A DNA stretch of 64,000 nucleotides from Stylophora pistillata (lineage: Eukaryota): assembly GCF_002571385.2 (NCBI RefSeq), contig NW_019217895.1, forward strand, positions 235,821 to 299,820, in the 5' to 3' direction. This document shows positions 49,468-63,625 of this stretch, one piece after another. Made by a program: the position numbers and the translations under genes. The notes beneath the pieces were generated by a model. That model was not told where the DNA came from and made no database searches. It was given only the letters and a program-made list of their open reading frames with translations. Within the stretch, counting starts at the first letter, position 1; each line of letters starts with the position of its first letter.

Positions 49468-50646
49468 ATGCTTACTAAAATATCGAAAAGGAGACCTTAC
49501 AGTCCAACTAATTTTAGGGAGAGATACACAGTTACATGTGCGATGAATTCAAGCAGGGTGGACGACAACATTTTCCCACCTGAATGGAGCGTCTACCAAG
49601 CAGTGGGAGGGAAGCTATCCGATTTTGGTGCCCAAGCTAAAAACTTTCTTATCTTTCTCGTAATCACCAACATCATCACCTCTCCTCTTACTGCGACTCT
49701 CAACATGTTGGTGATTATAGCTGTGAAAACTAAAAGCCGCTTGAAAGCCAAGAAGTCCAACATACTGCTTGCATGTTTAGCGGTGACCGATTTGGCGGTG
49801 GGTGTGATTGTTCAACCGATGTTAATTGTGGTTTCAATCATCGACTTGATCAGCGAACTAACGAGAGGGTTATGTTTCTTACAGATTTGTACACAATTTA
49901 TGACAAGTGTCCTGTGTAACTCGTCTCTTATCCACCTGACTTTGGTGAGTGGAGAACGATATTTAACCATAAAACACGTTTACGCCTATGCTAACGGACT
50001 CGTCACAGAGGTCCGCTTGCTGGTTGCCTTAAGTGTTGCGCGGCTCCTTTCCATAACACTGCACATTCCTCTTTTTGATTATAGATCAGCCTTTTATGTT
50101 ACAAACAACATTTTCATCGGAATTTCTGTCGCCATAGTAGCTTTCTGCCATGCAACAGTCTACCGCGAGGTTAGCAGACAGCAAAAGACACTTTCAACTC
50201 AAGAAGTCACAGAAGAGATAAGGCAGAAATTTCTGAAAGACAAGGAGGCTCTCAAACTGACATCTACAATTATTGTAGTACTTTTTCTCTGTTACTTGCC
50301 AATAACCGTTGTTAGAATTGTTTTAAGCCGGTCAGGTTTCATGTCTATAAAAGCAAGGTTTATAATTTTAATCTTTTCAGTGTCGTTTGCACTATTCAAC
50401 TCTTTCCTTAATCCACTAATTTACGCCATTAGGACACGACAATTTCGCGTAGCTTTTATCGAATTATCGTGTAGAACTGCAAACTTAGTTGAAGCTCAGG
50501 AAATTGAGAGGAGAATGTTTGGATCGCCAAATGCTGTGGAAGTAATAAACATAGAAGAAAAACAGGAAGAAGAACATCAAAATGAAGAACATCAAACTGA
50601 AGAACATCAAAATGATAAAATGAAGGACAGCAAATCTCAAACCTGA
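49468..50646 (+). CDS. Intronless rhodopsin-family (class A) GPCR, orphan, of the expanded cnidarian amine/adenosine-receptor-like type
   Basis: Seven hydrophobic segments with TM1 LN, TM2 LAVTD, TM3 ERY, TM6 CYLP, TM7 NSFLNPLIY and helix 8 QFRVAF. The true start may be the second Met (MNSS, 49543). Confidence 0.92.
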   Translation: MLTKISKRRPYSPTNFRERYTVTCAMNSSRVDDNIFPPEWSVYQAVGGKLSDFGAQAKNFLIFLVITNIITSPLTATLNMLVIIAVKTKSRLKAKKSNILLACLAVTDLAVGVIVQPMLIVVSIIDLISELTRGLCFLQICTQFMTSVLCNSSLIHLTLVSGERYLTIKHVYAYANGLVTEVRLLVALSVARLLSITLHIPLFDYRSAFYVTNNIFIGISVAIVAFCHATVYREVSRQQKTLSTQEVTEEIRQKFLKDKEALKLTSTIIVVLFLCYLPITVVRIVLSRSGFMSIKARFIILIFSVSFALFNSFLNPLIYAIRTRQFRVAFIELSCRTANLVEAQEIERRMFGSPNAVEVINIEEKQEEEHQNEEHQTEEHQNDKMKDSKSQT

Positions 50647-52087: not shown

Positions 52088-52880
52088 TAATCCACTAATT
52101 TAAGCCATTAGGACACGACAATTTCACGTAGCTTTCATCGAATTATTAGAGAGATTAAGCACCACGTATTTTTTTCCGGCGAACGTTAGGGAGGGTCACG
52201 TGACCTGACATTTCCCGCGTTTTCCGTTTGCCAGCCGCCGTTCCTATTCGAGGAGGACATTTTTCGCGTTTGTAGGGAACGCGAAAACGTGAGTATTTGC
52301 AGCCCATTTTTACCGACTATTTCTACATTTTGATTGCTTGCTTTTTTTTAAGTTTCGTTTATCATCTTACTCCTATATGAACTGCTTGTAAAGCTAATAG
52401 AGTTCAGATTCAAGCAAAAAATGCATTACTTCTTTGTATCCATTATTTCTAGTCGCAGTGAATGGCGACCGAGAACATTTGTTCTGCCCTGTCGTCGGGA
52501 AGCTTAAACAGACGAACTTCGCGGACGGAACGGCAAAACGACGAACGGCTAGCCGACGTTCAGCTTTCGCCGTTTTCGCGGTGCTTAATCTAACTATTGT
52601 GTAGAACTTCAAACTTAGCCAAAGCTCAGGAAGTCGAGAGGAAATTGTTCGGATCGCCAAATGCTGTTGGGATGATGGACAGAGGAAAAAAACAGGAAGA
52701 AGAACATCAAGATGAAGAACATCAAAATGAAGGCAGCAAATCTCAAACCTGAACATTAATGATGTTTTACCATTACGAGAAAGCCACATCCAATGAGTAA
52801 ACTTAAATTTCGTCAATTCCATCAAACTGCGTAGCCATAGTATTTAAAACGTGCAGGAAACATTAAGAGCATCTTTATTT
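52088..52880 (+). pseudogene. Partial duplicate of the GPCR 3' end (TM7, tail, 3'UTR) disrupted by a MITE
   Basis: 52088-52146 and 52597-52880 align to about 50408-50775. The NPLIY tyrosine is TAC>TAA, and there are deletions. Confidence 0.88.
52147..52596. mobile_element. ~450-bp MITE, copy 2, inserted in the GPCR pseudogene fragment
   Basis: Same TIRs and body as 51340-51789. It interrupts the sequence equivalent to atcgaattat|cgtgtagaac of the intact gene. Confidence 0.85.
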
Positions 52881-53377
52881 TTAGAATTGTTTGCTTTAGT
52901 TTTCTAAATAAATGATGTGTGACTTGTAGTGTCGAGAATAATTTTTGTAATTTGGAGTGAATTTTTAACTCTTTCGGTGATCAAGTAAGATAACTCACCA
53001 GTTATCAATGGGCAATAGAAGGGTGCCATACAAAGTAAGTTTGCAAAAATTATTTCCCCACAACCCTCTCCTCCATTCCCATTTCCACCTTTTCTGCCTT
53101 TTGGTTCACATTCGTAGTTTTCCCTTTCGTTCACTCATGTCCATGAATTAACAAATGGTCAACACCACAGCGTGCACTATTGGGTTATGGATGCACGCGA
53201 GAGGTTGCTAAGCACAAAAGAAGCGTAAGAGTCTCTAACTTCTTTGAGTGCTCAGCAAACCTCCCAAGTGCATCTATAACTCAGTAGTATACGCTGTGGT
53301 GTTTAACATTTGTTTTATAACATAACATTGATACATTGTAGCAAAAGAGTTCCCCTCGATTTTAACAAATCTTACGT

Positions 53378-53466
53378 GAAATTGAATTTCTTTGAATTGA
53401 AATTGAATTTCGTTGAATTGAAATTGAATTTCATTGAATTGAAATTGAATTTTAGTATTGAATTTT
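53378..53466. repeat. 21-bp minisatellite, about 4 copies
   Basis: gaaattgaatttc(N)ttgaatt units are directly visible. Confidence 0.85.
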
Positions 53467-54221
53467 GCTACAATTGGCTTACCATAGTCATCGCCGTTAT
53501 CAATTTTTCGTGGTTCAGAAATTTGCCAAATTAGTTCACAGAATACTGTATTTAGGTCAGTGGTGTCAATCAGTTCCTCGAAAGCGAATTTTCTTATCGT
53601 TTTCTTTATTTTTTCTGAGAAAGGAAATAGTTTGCGCTAATTAAACCTTTCAGTTTTAAGAAGTTTGAATAACTCGTTTCATTATGTTACTGCATGATGG
53701 AGCATGAATTATTTGTGACAAAAGGTCTTCATTATCTTGTTGACGTGGATTCTAATATATGACAAAAACGTCTTTTTTGCTTTCCGCCCAACGACCGGAA
53801 TTTTGATTTCCTTGGATCTTTGAATTGGCTGCTGTCCTGAACAATCCTTGAACGCTAGAAATTTCAATTCACTGGGAATATATTCATCCGATGAGTTATG
53901 TAAAAATAAAGAAACGTAGATCTTTGTGCATGTCGCAACAATTTGCTTTAATTTTGCATCGTAAATGATAAACAAGATTAACATCACCATATGATTATAT
54001 ATCAAACAAAGTTAACAGTAGAAAAAGTTTCGAAAAATTTACTTTTATCAAACGCTCGTGTCTGTAGTAAGATTGAAAAGCGACAATCATTATATTACGT
54101 TGTATCTTTAAATACTATAGTTTTATCTATATAATTATAAATTGCGGGCAAGACTTGTTCTTCAGCTCTGTGCAACCCAAACCATCAGACTAAAGCTCAA
54201 AATATCAGTTCTGCGTTGCAT

Positions 54222-54584
54222 TTACAGTACGTTCATCATTTTAGAATTGAAAAATCCTTGAGAAGCCATGCCGTCCACGACCGGTCGATCTGGAACTTGT
54301 GGCTGGACTCCAGCGACAACCAGTGGATTTTCGGAGGCAAGGGGAACCGAAGTCACCTGTGATGGTTGAGGATTTGCACTCAAGACCAATTTGCCAGTGT
54401 CGGTATCAAATTCTAACTGTTCTTGTGTGGAATGGTCGCCGTGCGAACTGCTGTGGCTGATATGATGTTGTTGTGTCGAAGCATTCCCGTCTAACTGTAT
54501 GAGCGCTGTATGCTCTGGATCTTCCCTTTGTCCAAAGTTATCAGGATCCCTACGCCTGTCAGGAAACCTTTGCTTGTCTTCCAT
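54222..54584 (-). CDS. 120-aa putative precursor/modifier peptide A ('GFF-motif' peptide), probably disordered, no recognised family
   Basis: Single ORF with a paralog at 56843-57250. Both share MED(K/R)Q(R/K)FPxRR, QExLEFDxDTGKLV and QVPDRPVVDxMAxQGFFxxxMMNV(L/F), with aligned start and stop codons. Confidence 0.8.
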   Translation of the reverse strand: MEDKQRFPDRRRDPDNFGQREDPEHTALIQLDGNASTQQHHISHSSSHGDHSTQEQLEFDTDTGKLVLSANPQPSQVTSVPLASENPLVVAGVQPQVPDRPVVDGMASQGFFNSKMMNVL

Positions 54585-54703
54585 TATGAATTTCGGTCTT
54601 CAAGAAGTGTTCTGTTTGAATACTTAGTGGTAAACACCCAAATTAAAAGCGAGCTGTTCGTTATGTTCTTATGAAAGAAACGAAACGGAATGAAAAATTA
54701 ACG

Positions 54704-54719
54704 CGCATGCGTATTTACG
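54704..54719 (-). promoter_or_regulatory. Conserved 16-bp upstream element CGCATGCGTATTTACG (NRF1-like plus Fox-like), shared with the paralog
   Basis: An identical 16-mer lies at 57363-57378. The copies sit 120 and 113 bp upstream of the two peptide ATGs, while the flanks have diverged. Confidence 0.6.
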
Positions 54720-54912
54720 GTTCAAACCATCTGACAGGTGAAGAGTGGCACGCCCAGTACGGTCGGCGTCCGAAAGAATCGTTTTCGTCGCGGTGTGTTT
54801 TGTATTCTTGCTGCAGGTTCGGTCACCAATAATGAAATCTAAATAAGTTTAGAGTGCATCGAAGAAATGAATTATCTCTCAAAGGAACAAGTCTCATACT
54901 AATTATCATTAA

Positions 54913-54972
<60 letters not shown>

Positions 54973-55079
54973 CGAGCCAATATACCATAGTCTAATATCC
55001 GTACATTGTAACATCCGGTTTCTTCTTACAAAATAAAGTCGAGAAGGTTTTTGTAATATCTTGGGGGCGTTTTCTTTTT

Positions 55080-55125
55080 TAATAAAACAATTATTCCACT
55101 CGCGCTTGTTGAATATGAGATGATT

Positions 55126-55183
<58 letters not shown>

Positions 55184-55205
55184 GCTCGTGGAATAACTGT
55201 TAAAT
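55080..55205. mobile_element. Palindromic MITE arm/hairpin
   Basis: aacaattattccactcgcgcttgttgaatatgagatgat...atcatctcatatccaacgcgcgctcgtggaataactgtt. Confidence 0.75.
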
Positions 55206-55501
55206 ATCCCATAGCTCCTTTCTAGCTTTAAATATCTCTTAACGGTGGCCAAAAAAGTCAGTTGATAAAACCAAATCATTTTGTACATGGAATACCCCCC
55301 ACCGATGTGGCATCACAGTTTTCCTTTCGTCCCATGAATATCTTCGAAGATATTGATACGATTTGTCTATCTAGTAGCCTATGTGATAAAAACTATGAAA
55401 AAACCTTTATTCTGCATGCGTGGATTTGTTAGGTGAAAAAATAACAGGTTAGGATTAGTCGTGGTGAAATCTTCAATGTTATCACGGTGAAATTTTGTAG
55501 C

Positions 55502-55533
<32 letters not shown>
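55502..55533. repeat. (TAGA)n microsatellite
   Basis: About 8 units directly visible. Confidence 0.95.
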
Positions 55534-56842
55534 CAAATGACCTTTATTTATACAGGATAATATTTTACCGCTCCAAGCAGGTGGGGCTGTGTGAAAAAAG
55601 AAAGGAAAATTACACTTTACGTAAAAATTACGTAAAAATAACCTAAAGTAAAAAAGAAATAGACAATGTATATATTATACTTATAAGTGAAAAAAAAAAT
55701 CAGTGTGTGTAAAGTGATCAATGGAAACGGAGAGTAGGTCAAATTTGAATTTTGTTTAAGTATCCTCTGGTGAGTAGGTGTTTTTTCAGAGAATTGAGCG
55801 AGCGTCCAACTTATTGTTCATTGTGGAAAACTGTGTTTCGTAACACAGTAGCCTGCTGAGCATATCCACCAAGTGATATGCCCTAACTCAAAAAAAGAAA
55901 AAAATTATCAAAGGAATTTTTCATGTCTCTAAATGCTCTATCACAACATTTCAATACAAATTGTTATTTTCAGCGATTCGATTGTTTTCTTTGTCTTCTT
56001 TTCTAAGAAAGAACGACAGTTTGTACCAAGTGATTATACATCTTCCGGTTGTTCCCAGAAATTTAGATTTTGTTGATGTAAGTAGATCTATTCTTGGCAT
56101 TTGCTCACGCAATACATGACGCACGACGAATAAAAAATAATTTTTACTTTCTTCACGTGATCAAAAAAGGATTGTGAAATGACATGAAACTAATAGCATA
56201 AGATGCCTATTTTTGCCCATTGCATCAGTTTTCGGTTTAAGGGTTGGGAGTTCGATTAGTATGTCGCATTAAAAATTTAATATTCATCTTTTCTTGGAAT
56301 TTTCCCTTGTTCTATTGTTTACATATCGATTTCTAAAAAGTTAATATTGTTGGGTTGTTAAAGAAATTGTCAATTCGAAAGGTCAGTGATAATGTTGTTA
56401 GTTTTCTATGCTTCAAAATAAAGAGAAGTATCTGTCAGAACATCGCAGAAATTGTATTTAATTGAATAAATGATGCATTTACATTGCGCATTCTCCTTAT
56501 CAATATACTCTAGTTCCCTTTACAACACTTTGCGGCGGGGACTTTGGCCAGACTGCATCGAGCAGTTTACAATTTCGCAGAAAATTAAAAAGCATCGCTT
56601 TTCCATTGCACAGTGTTACATTCTATCGAAGTACATAAAGTTTTTGTTGAATTTAGAAAGCTTGTATACAGAATGGATAAATTGAAAAGCGGGCGTAAAA
56701 TTACGATTTGCTCTTTGACAAGTTATTATGGCACCACGTTTTGTACTAAATAGTCTACATTACACAGGCCTCATTCTACGGCTAAAGACACTTCATACCT
56801 TGAAGGCAACCTTGATTTCTAGCTAGTAGTTCCAAGATGCGT

Positions 56843-57250
56843 TTAAAAAACGTTCATCATTTGGAAGTAGAAAAATCCTTGAGCAGCCATGGCGTCCACA
56901 ACCGGTCGATCTGGAACTTGTGCGCGGACTTCGAGTACAGCCACGGAACTTTCGCGAACAAAAGGTGCTTGTGGTGCCTGTGAATTCCTACAAACCACGA
57001 GTTTCCCTGTATCTTTATCAAATTCTAACCTCTCCTGCGCCGAATCGTCTGGGCGTCGATTGCTGTAGTTAACTGGCTGCTGCTGTGTCGTAACGGTCGT
57101 AGCGGAACGTTCTTGCGAGGAACCGTCTCGGCGTCGATTGGTGTAGTTGACTGGCTGATGGCTTGCACTGGCACTTCCCTCCGTACGCTGTGAACTTTCA
57201 AATCCGGAGTCTGCTAGTCTCCTAGGTGGAAACTTCTGTCTGTCTTCCAT
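56843..57250 (-). CDS. 135-aa putative precursor/modifier peptide B ('GFF-motif' peptide) with an internal 26-aa duplication
   Basis: Paralog of 54222-54584 with the same three conserved blocks. Internal repeat QPVNYTNRRRDGSSQER / QPVNYSNRRPDDSAQER. Confidence 0.8.
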   Translation of the reverse strand: MEDRQKFPPRRLADSGFESSQRTEGSASASHQPVNYTNRRRDGSSQERSATTVTTQQQPVNYSNRRPDDSAQERLEFDKDTGKLVVCRNSQAPQAPFVRESSVAVLEVRAQVPDRPVVDAMAAQGFFYFQMMNVF

Positions 57251-58365: not shown

Positions 58366-59571
58366 CTATTTGGGGGAAAATTGTTTGTGTTGTTCAAAGG
58401 TTGGACTGCCACGAGTAAGGGGATCATCAACATCTATCTTCTTAATATTTCTTTCTTCTTCTTCTTTACTTTCATCATTCACTTTTTGGATGAACACCTT
58501 TCTGCTAGGGAGAAATTCCATTTCAAGTTGCAAAGTTGCGGATCCTTTTTTAATAAGGTATGGATGGATAGCAACCACTTTATCCTGTATCTTAGAAACT
58601 AGGACTAAAAGACCTCCACCAGGATACTCTCGCCGCATTCCGCACAAGTCTTCCTCAGATGGTCCACCTGTCTCCCCTGTTTTGAGAATGTATTTTCCAA
58701 TATTCTCTAAAGGGTAACCTGGAGCCAAGTTATCTCTGGTTTGCATGGTAGCTGTGGGCTGTTTGTGTGAGGAAAGAGGCTGCAGTTCTTTTCCATTTTT
58801 TTTCTTGGGTTCTAGAACCAGATGCAAGACAGGCATGCCGTGACTCGTCCACAACCCAAGCAATTCACCTTCCATTTCATTCCCATCAGAGAGAGACAGC
58901 CTATTTTCAATCATCTGTTTGTCACCTTCAAACATGTAAGCACATGCTTTCCTGTCGTAAGTTTCTTTATTAGGCGATTTTTCCACTTTTCGATATTGAG
59001 GGGTTCTCATGTGTACATGGGCAGTGGTGCTTCGATCTTCGTCTTTCTTAATATATTCGTTAATGACATCTATTTTCCTGAAGGGGCTACAAGAACTGCC
59101 AAGTGGGCTAATTTCACCCCTTTCGTAAGTAGTCTGCCCTTGTCTGTAAAGGTAAGGCGAAAGTGTGACCTCCCCGCTCGACAAAATATTAGCAATGATC
59201 AGGATAAACCCACGCGCTCCTCTAGGAAAGTTCCGAATGACGGTCGAAGAATCTCCCGTGCTCGGCTCTGATAAACGCAATTTGTGGTGGGAATGCCATT
59301 CTCCGATGTGACAGAGCAGAAACTGCTCCGTCAGCAACCGTCCAACACGCTCCAAGTAGGGAATGCTCTGGTAGAACGATACTTCTGTGCGAGCGCAGCC
59401 AACTGCAGGACCAAGCACGACGTGCAAAACTGGTTCTTCATTGTTATTCCACAAACCAAACAGATTTCCACCAGTTTCCTTCGCCGGATGAAGCTTCACT
59501 AAATCCTTCATCAGTTGAATGTCTTCCTCGTACATATGCACTTGAAATTGCCTCCCGTGTGTTGTCCCCAT
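58366..59571 (-). CDS. Tandem JAB/MPN protein 1: N-terminal active JAMM domain plus C-terminal degenerate copy; intronless CDS
   Basis: Domain 1: ETGGNLFGLW...HIGEWHSHHKLRLSEPSTGD (E...HxH...SxxD). Domain 2: EMEGELLGLWTSHGMPVLHLVL...NIGKYILK...PSEED, lacking both Zn-binding His. Confidence 0.9.
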   Translation of the reverse strand: MGTTHGRQFQVHMYEEDIQLMKDLVKLHPAKETGGNLFGLWNNNEEPVLHVVLGPAVGCARTEVSFYQSIPYLERVGRLLTEQFLLCHIGEWHSHHKLRLSEPSTGDSSTVIRNFPRGARGFILIIANILSSGEVTLSPYLYRQGQTTYERGEISPLGSSCSPFRKIDVINEYIKKDEDRSTTAHVHMRTPQYRKVEKSPNKETYDRKACAYMFEGDKQMIENRLSLSDGNEMEGELLGLWTSHGMPVLHLVLEPKKKNGKELQPLSSHKQPTATMQTRDNLAPGYPLENIGKYILKTGETGGPSEEDLCGMRREYPGGGLLVLVSKIQDKVVAIHPYLIKKGSATLQLEMEFLPSRKVFIQKVNDESKEEEERNIKKIDVDDPLTRGSPTFEQHKQFSPK

Positions 59572-60808: not shown

Positions 60809-62143
60809 TCACCTCCAGGGTAGTTGGGCACTGGATGGACTTCGCACCCCTCCATTTGGTGCTTGGGGAGTAACCTTTAAGAAATTTGACCCCGAGGACC
60901 TTTTTAAAAAGGGGCTGTAAGAGGATTGCAGAGGACTAAGGCTACTTGTAGCTCTTGGATAACGTGAGTGTTCCCTGACTTCACTTCCCTTCTCCTTTTG
61001 GTATTTTATCTTCTCGATCTTGTTAAAGGGATTCTCATTGCGAAGACCCTGTACTGTTCCCGCTTTATCAAAGCTATATGTGGATCTCTCAGTGTAAAGA
61101 TACGGGGATAATCTCACAGAACCATACGACTCGATGTTGCCAATGATCAGAAGAAAGCCCTGTGTCCCTCGAGGGTAGTTTCTTATCACAGTCGTCGAAT
61201 CGCCTTGGCTTGGTTGGAAAAGTCGCAGCTGATGATGTGAGTGCCATTCTCCAATGTGGCATAACAAGTAGTCTTGAGTAAGAAGGTTGCCGTTTCTTTG
61301 CAGATAGGGAATATCTTGATAAAAGGAGGCGCCAGTCCGTTTGCAATTCTGACCTGGCCCCAGAGCGATATGTATGACTGCGTCACCATTAGTGGTCCAC
61401 AAACCAAACAGGTCTCCTCCAGTCTCTAGATGAGGATATGCAAGAATGTACTTTTCTATCCTCTCGATGTCTTCTTCAAACATAAATACCTTGAAATCAC
61501 GAGATGAGCTCCGCTGGTAGCCAGAAGAAAAGAACGTGCTTCTCTGCTGTATACCTCCTTTATCCAAATTTCTTGGAAAAGCTTCACCTGCATGAGTAAT
61601 TTCACCGTAGGGATCTTTTTGGAGATATGAAGAGCTGGGGTAAACTTCGGAGGTAGACCATTCCATTTCTTCCTCCACCTCAAAACCCTCGTTCAAACGA
61701 CTGCCTGTGTCGATTTCTCTAAATGGGCTTTCAGTTTTCAGAACTTCAACGTCGAGGGCTTTTGGAGAACCTCTCTTCAAGTTGACGATGAATAGCCGAA
61801 GCGTGACTTCTTGTCCTGAACGTTTGAGACTGACTGTCGTTTCAAGAAATTTACCTTCTGTATTATGACTGCAGTTTTTAACGTCTCTCTGACTTCTTCG
61901 TGTGCTAAGTCGCTTTAAAGAATAGCCATAATACCAATCACCGATATGCGAAAGCGAAAGATCCTTTCCAACTTCGCAGGAATGCTCTCTTGAAACGATG
62001 TGGATTACAGGTTCGCCATCGGTTGTCCACAAACCAAATAGATTTCCACTTAGTGCCTCTGGCTTAGTATTGGAAGGAACAAGCTTCTCAAAGACATCAT
62101 ATTCGCTCTGGAATATATAAACCCTCTTCTTCGAAGCAGCCAT
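60809..62143 (-). CDS. Tandem JAB/MPN protein 2: N-terminal degenerate copy plus C-terminal active JAMM domain; intronless CDS
   Basis: Domain 1: ALSGNLFGLWTTDGEPVIHIV...HIGDWYYGY (HxH replaced by YxG). Domain 2: ETGGDLFGLWTTNGDAVIHIALGPG...HIGEWHSHHQLRLFQPSQGD. An acceptor-like tctttctctaaacag lies just before the ATG. Confidence 0.9.
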   Translation of the reverse strand: MAASKKRVYIFQSEYDVFEKLVPSNTKPEALSGNLFGLWTTDGEPVIHIVSREHSCEVGKDLSLSHIGDWYYGYSLKRLSTRRSQRDVKNCSHNTEGKFLETTVSLKRSGQEVTLRLFIVNLKRGSPKALDVEVLKTESPFREIDTGSRLNEGFEVEEEMEWSTSEVYPSSSYLQKDPYGEITHAGEAFPRNLDKGGIQQRSTFFSSGYQRSSSRDFKVFMFEEDIERIEKYILAYPHLETGGDLFGLWTTNGDAVIHIALGPGQNCKRTGASFYQDIPYLQRNGNLLTQDYLLCHIGEWHSHHQLRLFQPSQGDSTTVIRNYPRGTQGFLLIIGNIESYGSVRLSPYLYTERSTYSFDKAGTVQGLRNENPFNKIEKIKYQKEKGSEVREHSRYPRATSSLSPLQSSYSPFLKRSSGSNFLKVTPQAPNGGVRSPSSAQLPWR

Positions 62144-63499: not shown

Positions 63500-63625
63500 A
63501 AGATAATTTGGATATATCAACAAAGTTGAAATGGTAAATTAGCCACCGTAATGATTACAAAAGCTGACGTTTCGAGCGTTAGCCCTTCGTCGGAGGGCTA
63601 ATGTTCCTTCGTCGGAGGGCTAAAT
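63500..63625 (-). mobile_element. Penelope-associated terminal repeat with a degenerate minimal hammerhead motif; related copies near 4720-4851, 43505-43590, 47160-47270 and 55225-55330
   Basis: The minus strand reads CCGACGA-AGGGC-TAAC-GCTC-GAAAC-GTCAG. Confidence 0.6.

Follow-up and report, generated by a model that had tools for sequence, protein, structure and literature searches.

Several bacterial systems in which an E1, an E2 and a JAB peptidase act on a modifier are the closest described counterparts of the coral genes considered here: two peptide genes, P0001 and P0002, and the enzyme genes beside them, in a 64-kb window of the Stylophora pistillata genome (G000:C112:235821-299820; coordinates without a prefix are positions in this window). 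[quoted passage not shown] Cap2, built as E2-linker-E1, is described as activating this C-terminus, which belongs to the cyclase, and the JAB Cap3 as cutting after it (10.1101/2022.03.31.486616). In the Bub system (6E/DUF6527), a JAB releases a fused modifier, with BubCD cleaving the fused precursor, the E1 has a homodimeric ThiF-type fold and a Cys-less loop with one invariant Tyr, and an oxyester between the ubiquitin-like protein (Ubl) and Tyr has been reported (10.1101/2024.11.21.623953). Bil (BilABCD) comprises four separate genes for modifier, E2, JAB and E1 and is described without an E3 (10.1101/2023.09.26.559546; 10.1101/2024.11.21.623966). Iyer, Burroughs and Aravind (2006; PMC1779556) likewise predicted a protein-modifying role for neighbourhoods of JAB, E1 and E2 genes, their operon types 6a-6e.

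The coral genes and a matching bacterial cassette, ordered JAB>E2>hairpin peptide>E1, probably work like Cap2/Cap3 of type II CBASS, Bil and Bub without being a member of any of them, which would make the cassette a peptide-modifier form of E1-E2-JAB tagging that was domesticated in early-branching animals. The best PADLOC matches of the cassette enzymes are E1-E2, E2 and JAB models, and on a Bradyrhizobium plasmid a diverged form of the cassette stands before a CD-NTase. However, the cassette encodes its E2 in a gene of its own and has a dedicated peptide of about 60 residues, rather than a cyclase, as modifier; the end of this peptide is mostly GFF, and the E1 loop carries a Tyr in place of the Cys of Cap2. 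No CD-NTase or effector was found among the open reading frames (ORFs) listed over C112:235821-358820, selected ones of which were scanned against families; both occur solely in the Bradyrhizobium relative. Tyr315 of the cassette E1 may be likened to Y370 of BubCD at the level of the loop, not residue by residue, whereas the Bub modifiers are described as beta-grasp Ubls ending in Gly, used together with a Ser E2 and BubE (DUF6527), and the cassette has a hairpin peptide and a Cys E2; no DUF6527 match was obtained among the cluster and neighbour proteins scanned. BilA is a beta-grasp protein and BilD is described as a canonical IAD-AAD-CYS E1, unlike the coral E1, which has a single adenylation domain and no conserved loop Cys. 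The five gene sets given for types 6a-6e (metallo-beta-lactamase; nucleotidyltransferase; metal-binding protein; beta-grasp small protein with a helical protein; polyUbl) also differ from that of the cassette (PMC1779556). The literature searched, mostly the main texts of open papers, contains no description of this cassette or of an animal copy. In eukaryotes, polyubiquitin and ubiquitin-fusion precursors encode the modifier with caps, in tandem or fused, and UBA5 of the UFM1 system is a minimal homodimeric E1; the cassette differs from both in having neither a beta-grasp fold nor a Gly end and in its bacterial-type enzymes. To our knowledge, all E1/E2-dependent modifiers of animals are beta-grasp proteins.

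The peptide family and its bacterial cassette

We propose, with a probability of roughly two in three, that P0001 and P0002 are precursors of a tag without a ubiquitin fold that is joined covalently to other molecules by the cassette enzymes. Because the peptide family sits in a bacterial E1/E2/JAB cassette that the coral keeps alongside, the window peptides are likely trimmed after their GFF motif and used as a tag. A previous, sequence-only reading of the window had described both peptides and overlooked the JAB, E1 and E2 genes beside them, along with the operon in bacteria by which the system can be identified.

The closest non-animal relatives of the coral E1 are bacterial, many of them cyanobacterial, with 42-56% identity and E values of about 1e-95 to 1e-104. 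Nine homologs in the E1 alignment start with a peptide (LxFDPxTGELVV ... D(Q/N)IAxxGFF) and then continue as E1. In a metagenome scan, for which we used the best 80 of 324 loci and set 7 aside as animal-looking, a peptide lies within 450 nt upstream of E1 in 60 of the 63 non-animal loci with room, and in 13 the two form an in-frame fusion. The order JAB>E2>peptide>E1 is found in 40 of 43 loci with more room, and a stand-alone E2 precedes E1 in 42 of 43; several bacterial loci are near-duplicates, and thus the counts do not represent independent events. The sequences show that peptide, JAB, E2 and E1 make up a single conserved unit, in which the part behind GF[F/A] is free to vary.

A profile built from 18 non-coral rows was compared with 5,237 open frames from fetched stretches of the S. 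pistillata genome. Family members rank within the top 8, and the window peptides are among the top 5 with E values of 3.6e-5 and 4.6e-5, above chance. A 21-row profile, applied at E up to 0.001, picked out 453 members from a set of 1.84 billion representatives, and the best 150 matches contain 135 full motif copies, all closed by a GF[F/A]-type end (GFF in 76, GFA in 50, close variants in 9). Nothing follows this end in 19 copies, most have short tails, several continue into tandem copies and others into fused domains; some of the zero-tail ends may be truncated gene calls, and locus L092 has a true stop after GFA. The Gly is invariant in 92 of 92 and is followed by two conserved residues, GFF and GFA being the shortest natural ends. 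The FDPxTG hairpin alone is unspecific, with about 20 of the best 150 profile matches being long unrelated repeat proteins. The sequence-only reading had proposed GFF as a processing site, which the shared end of all full copies supports, and had considered the tail as a removable cap, a view supported by the finding of 0 to more than 400 residues, another copy or E1 itself behind GF[F/A]. Since the family thus follows the logic of ubiquitin precursors, with fusions, tandem copies and ends at GF[F/A], the tail would be a cap and not an active octapeptide.

Septu PtuA-type genes lie directly after E1 and in the same orientation in four loci (L048, L063, L065 and L076), with PtuB in three. On the Bradyrhizobium barranii plasmid NZ_CP088281.1 (L035:3963-10333), JAB, E2 and an E1 whose N-terminal extension is peptide-like but diverged are followed by a SMODS cyclase, Cap4-SAVED and TIR. 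The Septu genes and the cassette in front of a CBASS cyclase are hints of a defence role; most other neighbours in a scan of 30 hand-picked from 107 listed gave no defence match, and no E1 relative was found among the viral contigs scanned. The Acaryochloris marina plasmid pREB3 (NC_009928.1) carries the parts scattered and not as an operon: the peptide matches at two places, the better one near 84.5 kb, the E2 lies at 106.7 kb and the E1 at 193.5 kb. Proteins that start with or contain an FNPETGEL-like hairpin and have no GFF, otherwise unrelated, are encoded after E1 in L081, L086, L088, L092, L094, L103, L105, L107 and L109. In these and in a coral protein (C112:312342-312902), the hairpin is possibly a docking tag that marks targets or partners.

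Enzymes of the cassette

All 9 JAB sequences compared share Glu, HxH and Asp, and all 12 E2 sequences share His92 and Cys104. The E2 matches the PADLOC E2 model at E 8.5e-5 and UQ_con/RWD weakly. The E1 matches PF00899 at E 1e-34 with a single adenylation domain and retains its ATP-binding motifs, with GLGSGG, DxDR and two CxxC pairs conserved. In its crossover loop Glu301, Pro313 and Tyr315 are invariant, Tyr315 being present in 81 of 81 sequences. The structural model of the E1 (predicted local distance difference test, pLDDT, 80) matches MoeB (Z 23, root-mean-square deviation (rmsd) 3.3, 222 aligned), UBA5 and BubCD, and also MccB and PaaA; against Cap2 it aligns from residue 6 and includes the linker (Z 14.2, rmsd 5.3, 311 aligned). 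The N-terminal domain of the E1 might be an inactive JAB, but profile comparison gave no match; in the structural alignment, this region extends to the Cap2 linker. A complex prediction for an E1 dimer with the P0002 core and ATP, run without alignments, stayed below the mark of 0.34 with scores of 0.10 and 0.03 and speaks neither for nor against the reading.

The coral peptides

Both peptide ORFs are real: RNA-library contigs contain them, and corals conserve them. The sequence-only reading had correctly recorded the islands MEDxQxFPxRR, QExLEFDxDTGKLV and QVPDRPVVDxMAxQGFF, the tails NSKMMNVL and YFQMMNVF and the lack of a signal peptide; on inspection, the N-termini are hydrophilic without a signal-peptide-like stretch. 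The equal spacing of 28 residues between KLV and QVPD that it gave applies to P0001, whereas the spacing in P0002 is 25, and its fixed 8-residue tail does not hold, as the tail after GFF has 8 residues in 8, 2 in 12 and 0 in 1 of 21 aligned coral sequences. Its description of three islands between unalignable linkers was overstated with respect to the linkers, which are partly alignable at the DNA level; the gene pair, on the minus strand, is a tandem duplication that can be aligned over much of both genes.

A search with P0002 yielded 19 homologs out of 46 candidates. Named relatives of the window peptides are pocilloporid stony corals, and the P0002 orthologue clusters with a Pocillopora damicornis protein. 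The P. damicornis model RMX54586.1 merges both peptide orthologues into 260 residues, probably as a prediction artefact; separate proteins of 135 and 121 residues also occur. In the 21-row coral alignment, DRPVV, D, M, A and QGFF are invariant in 21 of 21, and the spacer from KLV to the V of V.DRP has 26-39 residues in 50 of 55 coral homologs matching the pattern; the conserved core of about 45-60 residues includes a variable spacer. P0002 also contains an internal QPVNYxNRR repeat. The hairpin may plausibly serve as an enzyme-recognition element, as the sequence-only reading had suggested. In a low-confidence model of a 67-residue core (pLDDT 60), a two-strand hairpin and a disordered spacer precede a short helix before GFF, so the core is, at low confidence, predicted not to adopt a beta-grasp fold. 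Neither peptide matched a Ubl family in Pfam or any meaningful family in Pfam, PADLOC or NCBIfam, and an ESM Atlas query with P0002 residues 68-135 gave no usable match. A resemblance of MAAQGFFY to BIR domains was abandoned, as there is no Pfam match and none of the Zn ligands is present.

Over 17 hairpin codons, P0001 and P0002 differ by 10.5 synonymous and 6.5 non-synonymous changes. The QVPDRP...GFF codons (54249-54299 and 56870-56920) are almost the same in both genes, with 3 synonymous differences over 13 sites versus 10.5 over 11 in the hairpin, and this near-identity suggests gene conversion or constraint at the nucleotide level. A 16-bp element occurs in just two copies in the genome, one upstream of each peptide gene, and is a possible promoter site.

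The P0002 lineage carries a DSGFxxS motif, and the degron consensus of betaTrCP is given as DSGXXS. In 18 of 21 coral sequences, which are related rows, the pattern DSG.{2,3}[ST] is present and a Lys lies 7-10 residues upstream of it; none of the 116 short family representatives has the pattern. Its frequency in shuffled sequences is 0.6-0.9%; the Ser at +6 is invariant and a Ser at +5 occurs in 9 of 18. As an alternative to a betaTrCP-like degron, DSGFxxS could be the relic of the end of a tandem copy.

A gene cluster in the coral genome

Two JAB-peptidase genes lie directly upstream of the peptide genes, and the cluster extends beyond the window end over G000:C112:301887-312902 (Table 1), so that E1, E2, the spliced double-JAB gene and further paralogs are all located within 20 kb. 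At least three clusters in the genome carry peptides beside enzymes, namely those on C112, C332 (with E2, peptide and E1) and C293 (with JABs and three peptide-like frames), and further E2s are found on C626 and C53; all these counts are lower bounds. Besides a protein kinase and JABs with long low-complexity tails, the C293 cluster (C293:142704-167822) encodes proteins whose W-x-I-x-FP repeat domains look like the C-terminal domain of bacterial JABs; it also contains the three peptide-like frames, and no E1 was found within it. An intronless rhodopsin-type G-protein-coupled receptor (GPCR) gene lies at 49468-50646 of the window, with a partial duplicate of its 3' end at about 52400-52820. High-copy interspersed repeats occur at about 54900-55200, 53200-53500 and 63500-63600, and one with very high contig depth lies between the peptide genes.

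Table 1. Positions of the peptide genes, their motifs and the enzyme genes of the cluster.
Feature	Position	Strand	Remarks
Peptide gene P0001	54222..54584	-	120 residues; hairpin, GFF, 8-residue tail; no DSG motif; RNA-library contigs span 53923-54944
Peptide gene P0002	56843..57250	-	135 residues; RNA-library contigs in X13, X1, X4
P0001 hairpin island QEQLEFDTDTGKLV	54384..54425	-	Over 17 codons, 10.5 synonymous and 6.5 non-synonymous differences to P0002
P0002 hairpin island QERLEFDKDTGKLV	56996..57037	-	Predicted two-strand beta-hairpin
P0001 GFF, putative mature C-terminus	54249..54257	-	Family-wide motif ends; tail 54225-54248
P0002 GFF, putative mature C-terminus	56870..56878	-	Family-wide motif ends; tail 56846-56869
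16-bp element upstream of P0001	54704..54719	-	Identical copy upstream of P0002; candidate promoter site
16-bp element upstream of P0002	57363..57378	-	Same sequence as P0001 element
DSGFESS in P0002	57191..57211	-	Fits DSGXXS, the consensus of betaTrCP degrons; a Lys lies 8 residues upstream
JAB/JAMM peptidase gene	58366..59571	-	401 residues; N-terminal JAB intact (E32, HxH 93/95, D107), second JAB-like repeat degenerate
JAB/JAMM peptidase gene	60809..62143	-	444 residues; first repeat degenerate, second domain intact
Degenerate peptide-like frame	C112:301887-302057	-	No ATG
Compact peptide paralog	C112:302519-302761	+	80 residues; SGGFF then 21 residues
ThiF-type E1	C112:303773-305062	-	429 residues
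Double-JAB gene	C112:306725-309552	-	Two exons
Stand-alone E2	C112:310575-311021	+	148 residues
Hairpin protein	C112:312342-312902	-	186 residues; two hairpins, no GFF

In the polyA library X13 and in two probable RNA runs, contigs extend over both peptide genes and the greater part of the two JAB genes; contigs from RNA libraries alone do not prove transcription, and gaps in their coverage were not used as evidence. For the neighbouring E1 and double-JAB genes, transcription is demonstrated by splice joints, with a GT-AG intron upstream of the E1 start (X13) and another inside the double-JAB gene (X1, X4 and X5) that leads to an open frame of 493 codons containing two HIGEWHSHH motifs, both intact. 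In P. damicornis, peptide and E1 have consecutive locus tags. Between the compact paralog and its orthologue in the coral locus L101, the proportions of non-synonymous (pN) and synonymous (pS) differences are 0.036 and 0.71 over a 59-codon core, and the tail is unalignable; this comparison indicates that the peptide core is under purifying selection and the tail is diverging.

Origin of the animal E1

A quick maximum-likelihood tree of 68 E1s, rooted at the midpoint, places all 7 named or known animal rows (Oscarella, Dendronephthya, two Actinostola, Desmophyllum and two of S. pistillata) in one clade of 32 rows (SH-aLRT 100), of which the other 25 are unnamed. Branching within the clade follows sponge, octocoral, anemone and stony coral. 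The clade is nested among bacterial rows, with a weakly supported (81) sister group rich in cyanobacteria. On the simplest and most likely reading of this tree, an early animal ancestor took the cassette over from bacteria a single time, and expansion followed. A 'thif family protein' is listed in a table of transfers from bacteria to Anthozoa (PMC4878875), and the passages available give no function, peptide, E2 or JAB for it; being anthozoan and of bacterial origin, it may be the coral E1. A 1.5-kb contig in a bacterial metagenome-assembled genome, the sole match of a contig scan with the coral E1, looks like coral DNA.

Proposed pathway and alternatives

In the pathway that we propose, a Zn-dependent JAB would cut after GFF and so free the tail, the copy behind it or an E1 fused to it. 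Cutting after the Gly is a less likely alternative, albeit a serious one. The E1 would bind the peptide, probably via the hairpin and the VVDxMA segment, and adenylate the new C-terminus with ATP. Because the E1 loop has no conserved Cys, we suggest, by analogy to BubCD, that the peptide is handed on via the loop Tyr315 or straight to the E2. Cys104 of the E2 would then bind the peptide in a thioester and deliver it to an amine of the target, and the JAB could reverse the link. In the P0002 lineage, DSGFxxS could, speculatively, pass tagged targets to SCF-betaTrCP. A role in immune or stress defence is likewise speculative.

Several observations weigh against this proposal. Known modifiers typically end in Gly or Ala (PMC11153139), which makes a Phe end unusual and a weak point of the mechanism. 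The E1 crossover loop (289-326) contains a Cys in just 4 of 81 sequences, and the usual thioester step would therefore be missing; C188, present in 76 of 81, is a candidate alternative to a loop Cys. Three bacterial loci with room (L080, L081 and L115) have no peptide match. The window peptides diverge from the bacterial form in a longer spacer and an extra N-terminus, and they may have changed role. Finally, the 8-residue tail is alike among pocilloporid orthologues (32 of 50 matched sequences), possibly reflecting some constraint there.

The divergence of the coral form could mean that the bacterial system conjugates its peptide and the long window paralogs now act as non-covalent regulators, either as decoys or adaptors that dock on E1, E2 or JAB via the hairpin or as degron-bearing signalling proteins. 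Hairpin-only proteins exist beside the coral genes and after several bacterial E1s, the window peptides score 22 bits on the bacterial profile versus 42 for the compact paralog, and the DSG motif is lineage-specific. We nevertheless consider regulators quite unlikely, given that DRPVVD, M and QGFF are invariant in all 21 coral sequences and that one homolog ends exactly at GFF. A route resembling that of ribosomally synthesized and post-translationally modified peptides (RiPPs), in which an E1 such as MccB or PaaA and the JAB turn the peptide C-terminus into a small modified product with no transfer to protein, would account for the E1 model matching these two enzymes, for the leader-like hairpin with a short conserved C-terminal core and for the E1 loop without Cys. 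We know of no need for an E2 in MccB/PaaA-type pathways. The chance of such a route is small in view of the stand-alone E2 with invariant His and Cys in nearly all loci with room and of neighbours examined among which no transporter or tailoring gene recurs. We assign a very small probability to conjugation to a lipid or small-molecule amine, as with ATG8, instead of a protein lysine. The E1 N-terminal region does align with the Cap2 linker, which has been likened to the N-terminal domain of ATG7 (10.1101/2022.03.31.486616), and several bacterial neighbours resemble membrane proteins; however, the E2 matches, weak as they are, are of the UBC/RWD type, and the bacterial relatives that have been tested modify proteins.

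The sequence-only reading had also raised the possibility that the tail is a released active octapeptide, and xxKMxNxx-type tails do recur among pocilloporid orthologues. This is highly improbable, as neither length nor sequence of the tail is conserved in corals or family-wide and there is no signal peptide. Coding regions that are mostly intronless might suggest bacterial contamination, and NCBI labels the Pocillopora and Oscarella E1s 'ubiquitin-like modifier-activating enzyme 5', as if the E1 were merely a diverged eukaryotic UBA5. Both ideas are almost certainly wrong. The GT-AG splice joints in transcripts refute contamination, against which there also stand the GPCR and transposon-like frames flanking the cluster, its even GC content and the location of the E1 orthologue on a 22-Mb Pocillopora verrucosa contig. 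With respect to UBA5, the E1 is 42-56% identical to bacterial E1s versus 21-25% to the human protein, and the branching of the animal E1s by host group speaks against either idea.

Implications

A wider proposal, which we regard as unlikely in its entirety, is that sponges and anthozoans possess a second covalent protein-tagging pathway, acquired from bacteria as a complete unit ahead of the split between these lineages, with a hairpin peptide, a C-terminal Phe, a Tyr-bearing E1 and a Cys E2, and wired to the proteasome in stony corals by a betaTrCP degron on the tag. A peptide tag served by an E1, E2 and JAB of its own, intact and spliced in corals, would represent a new post-translational modification in early-branching animals and a case of an animal domesticating a complete bacterial pathway of several genes. 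Together, the four genes of the bacterial cassette take up less than 3.5 kb, which makes the chemistry (cut site, relay through Tyr or Cys, and target) and a role in phage defence directly testable in laboratory strains. For reef corals, the cassette is a candidate immune or stress pathway, and its recognition would correct the UBA5 label on the animal E1s.

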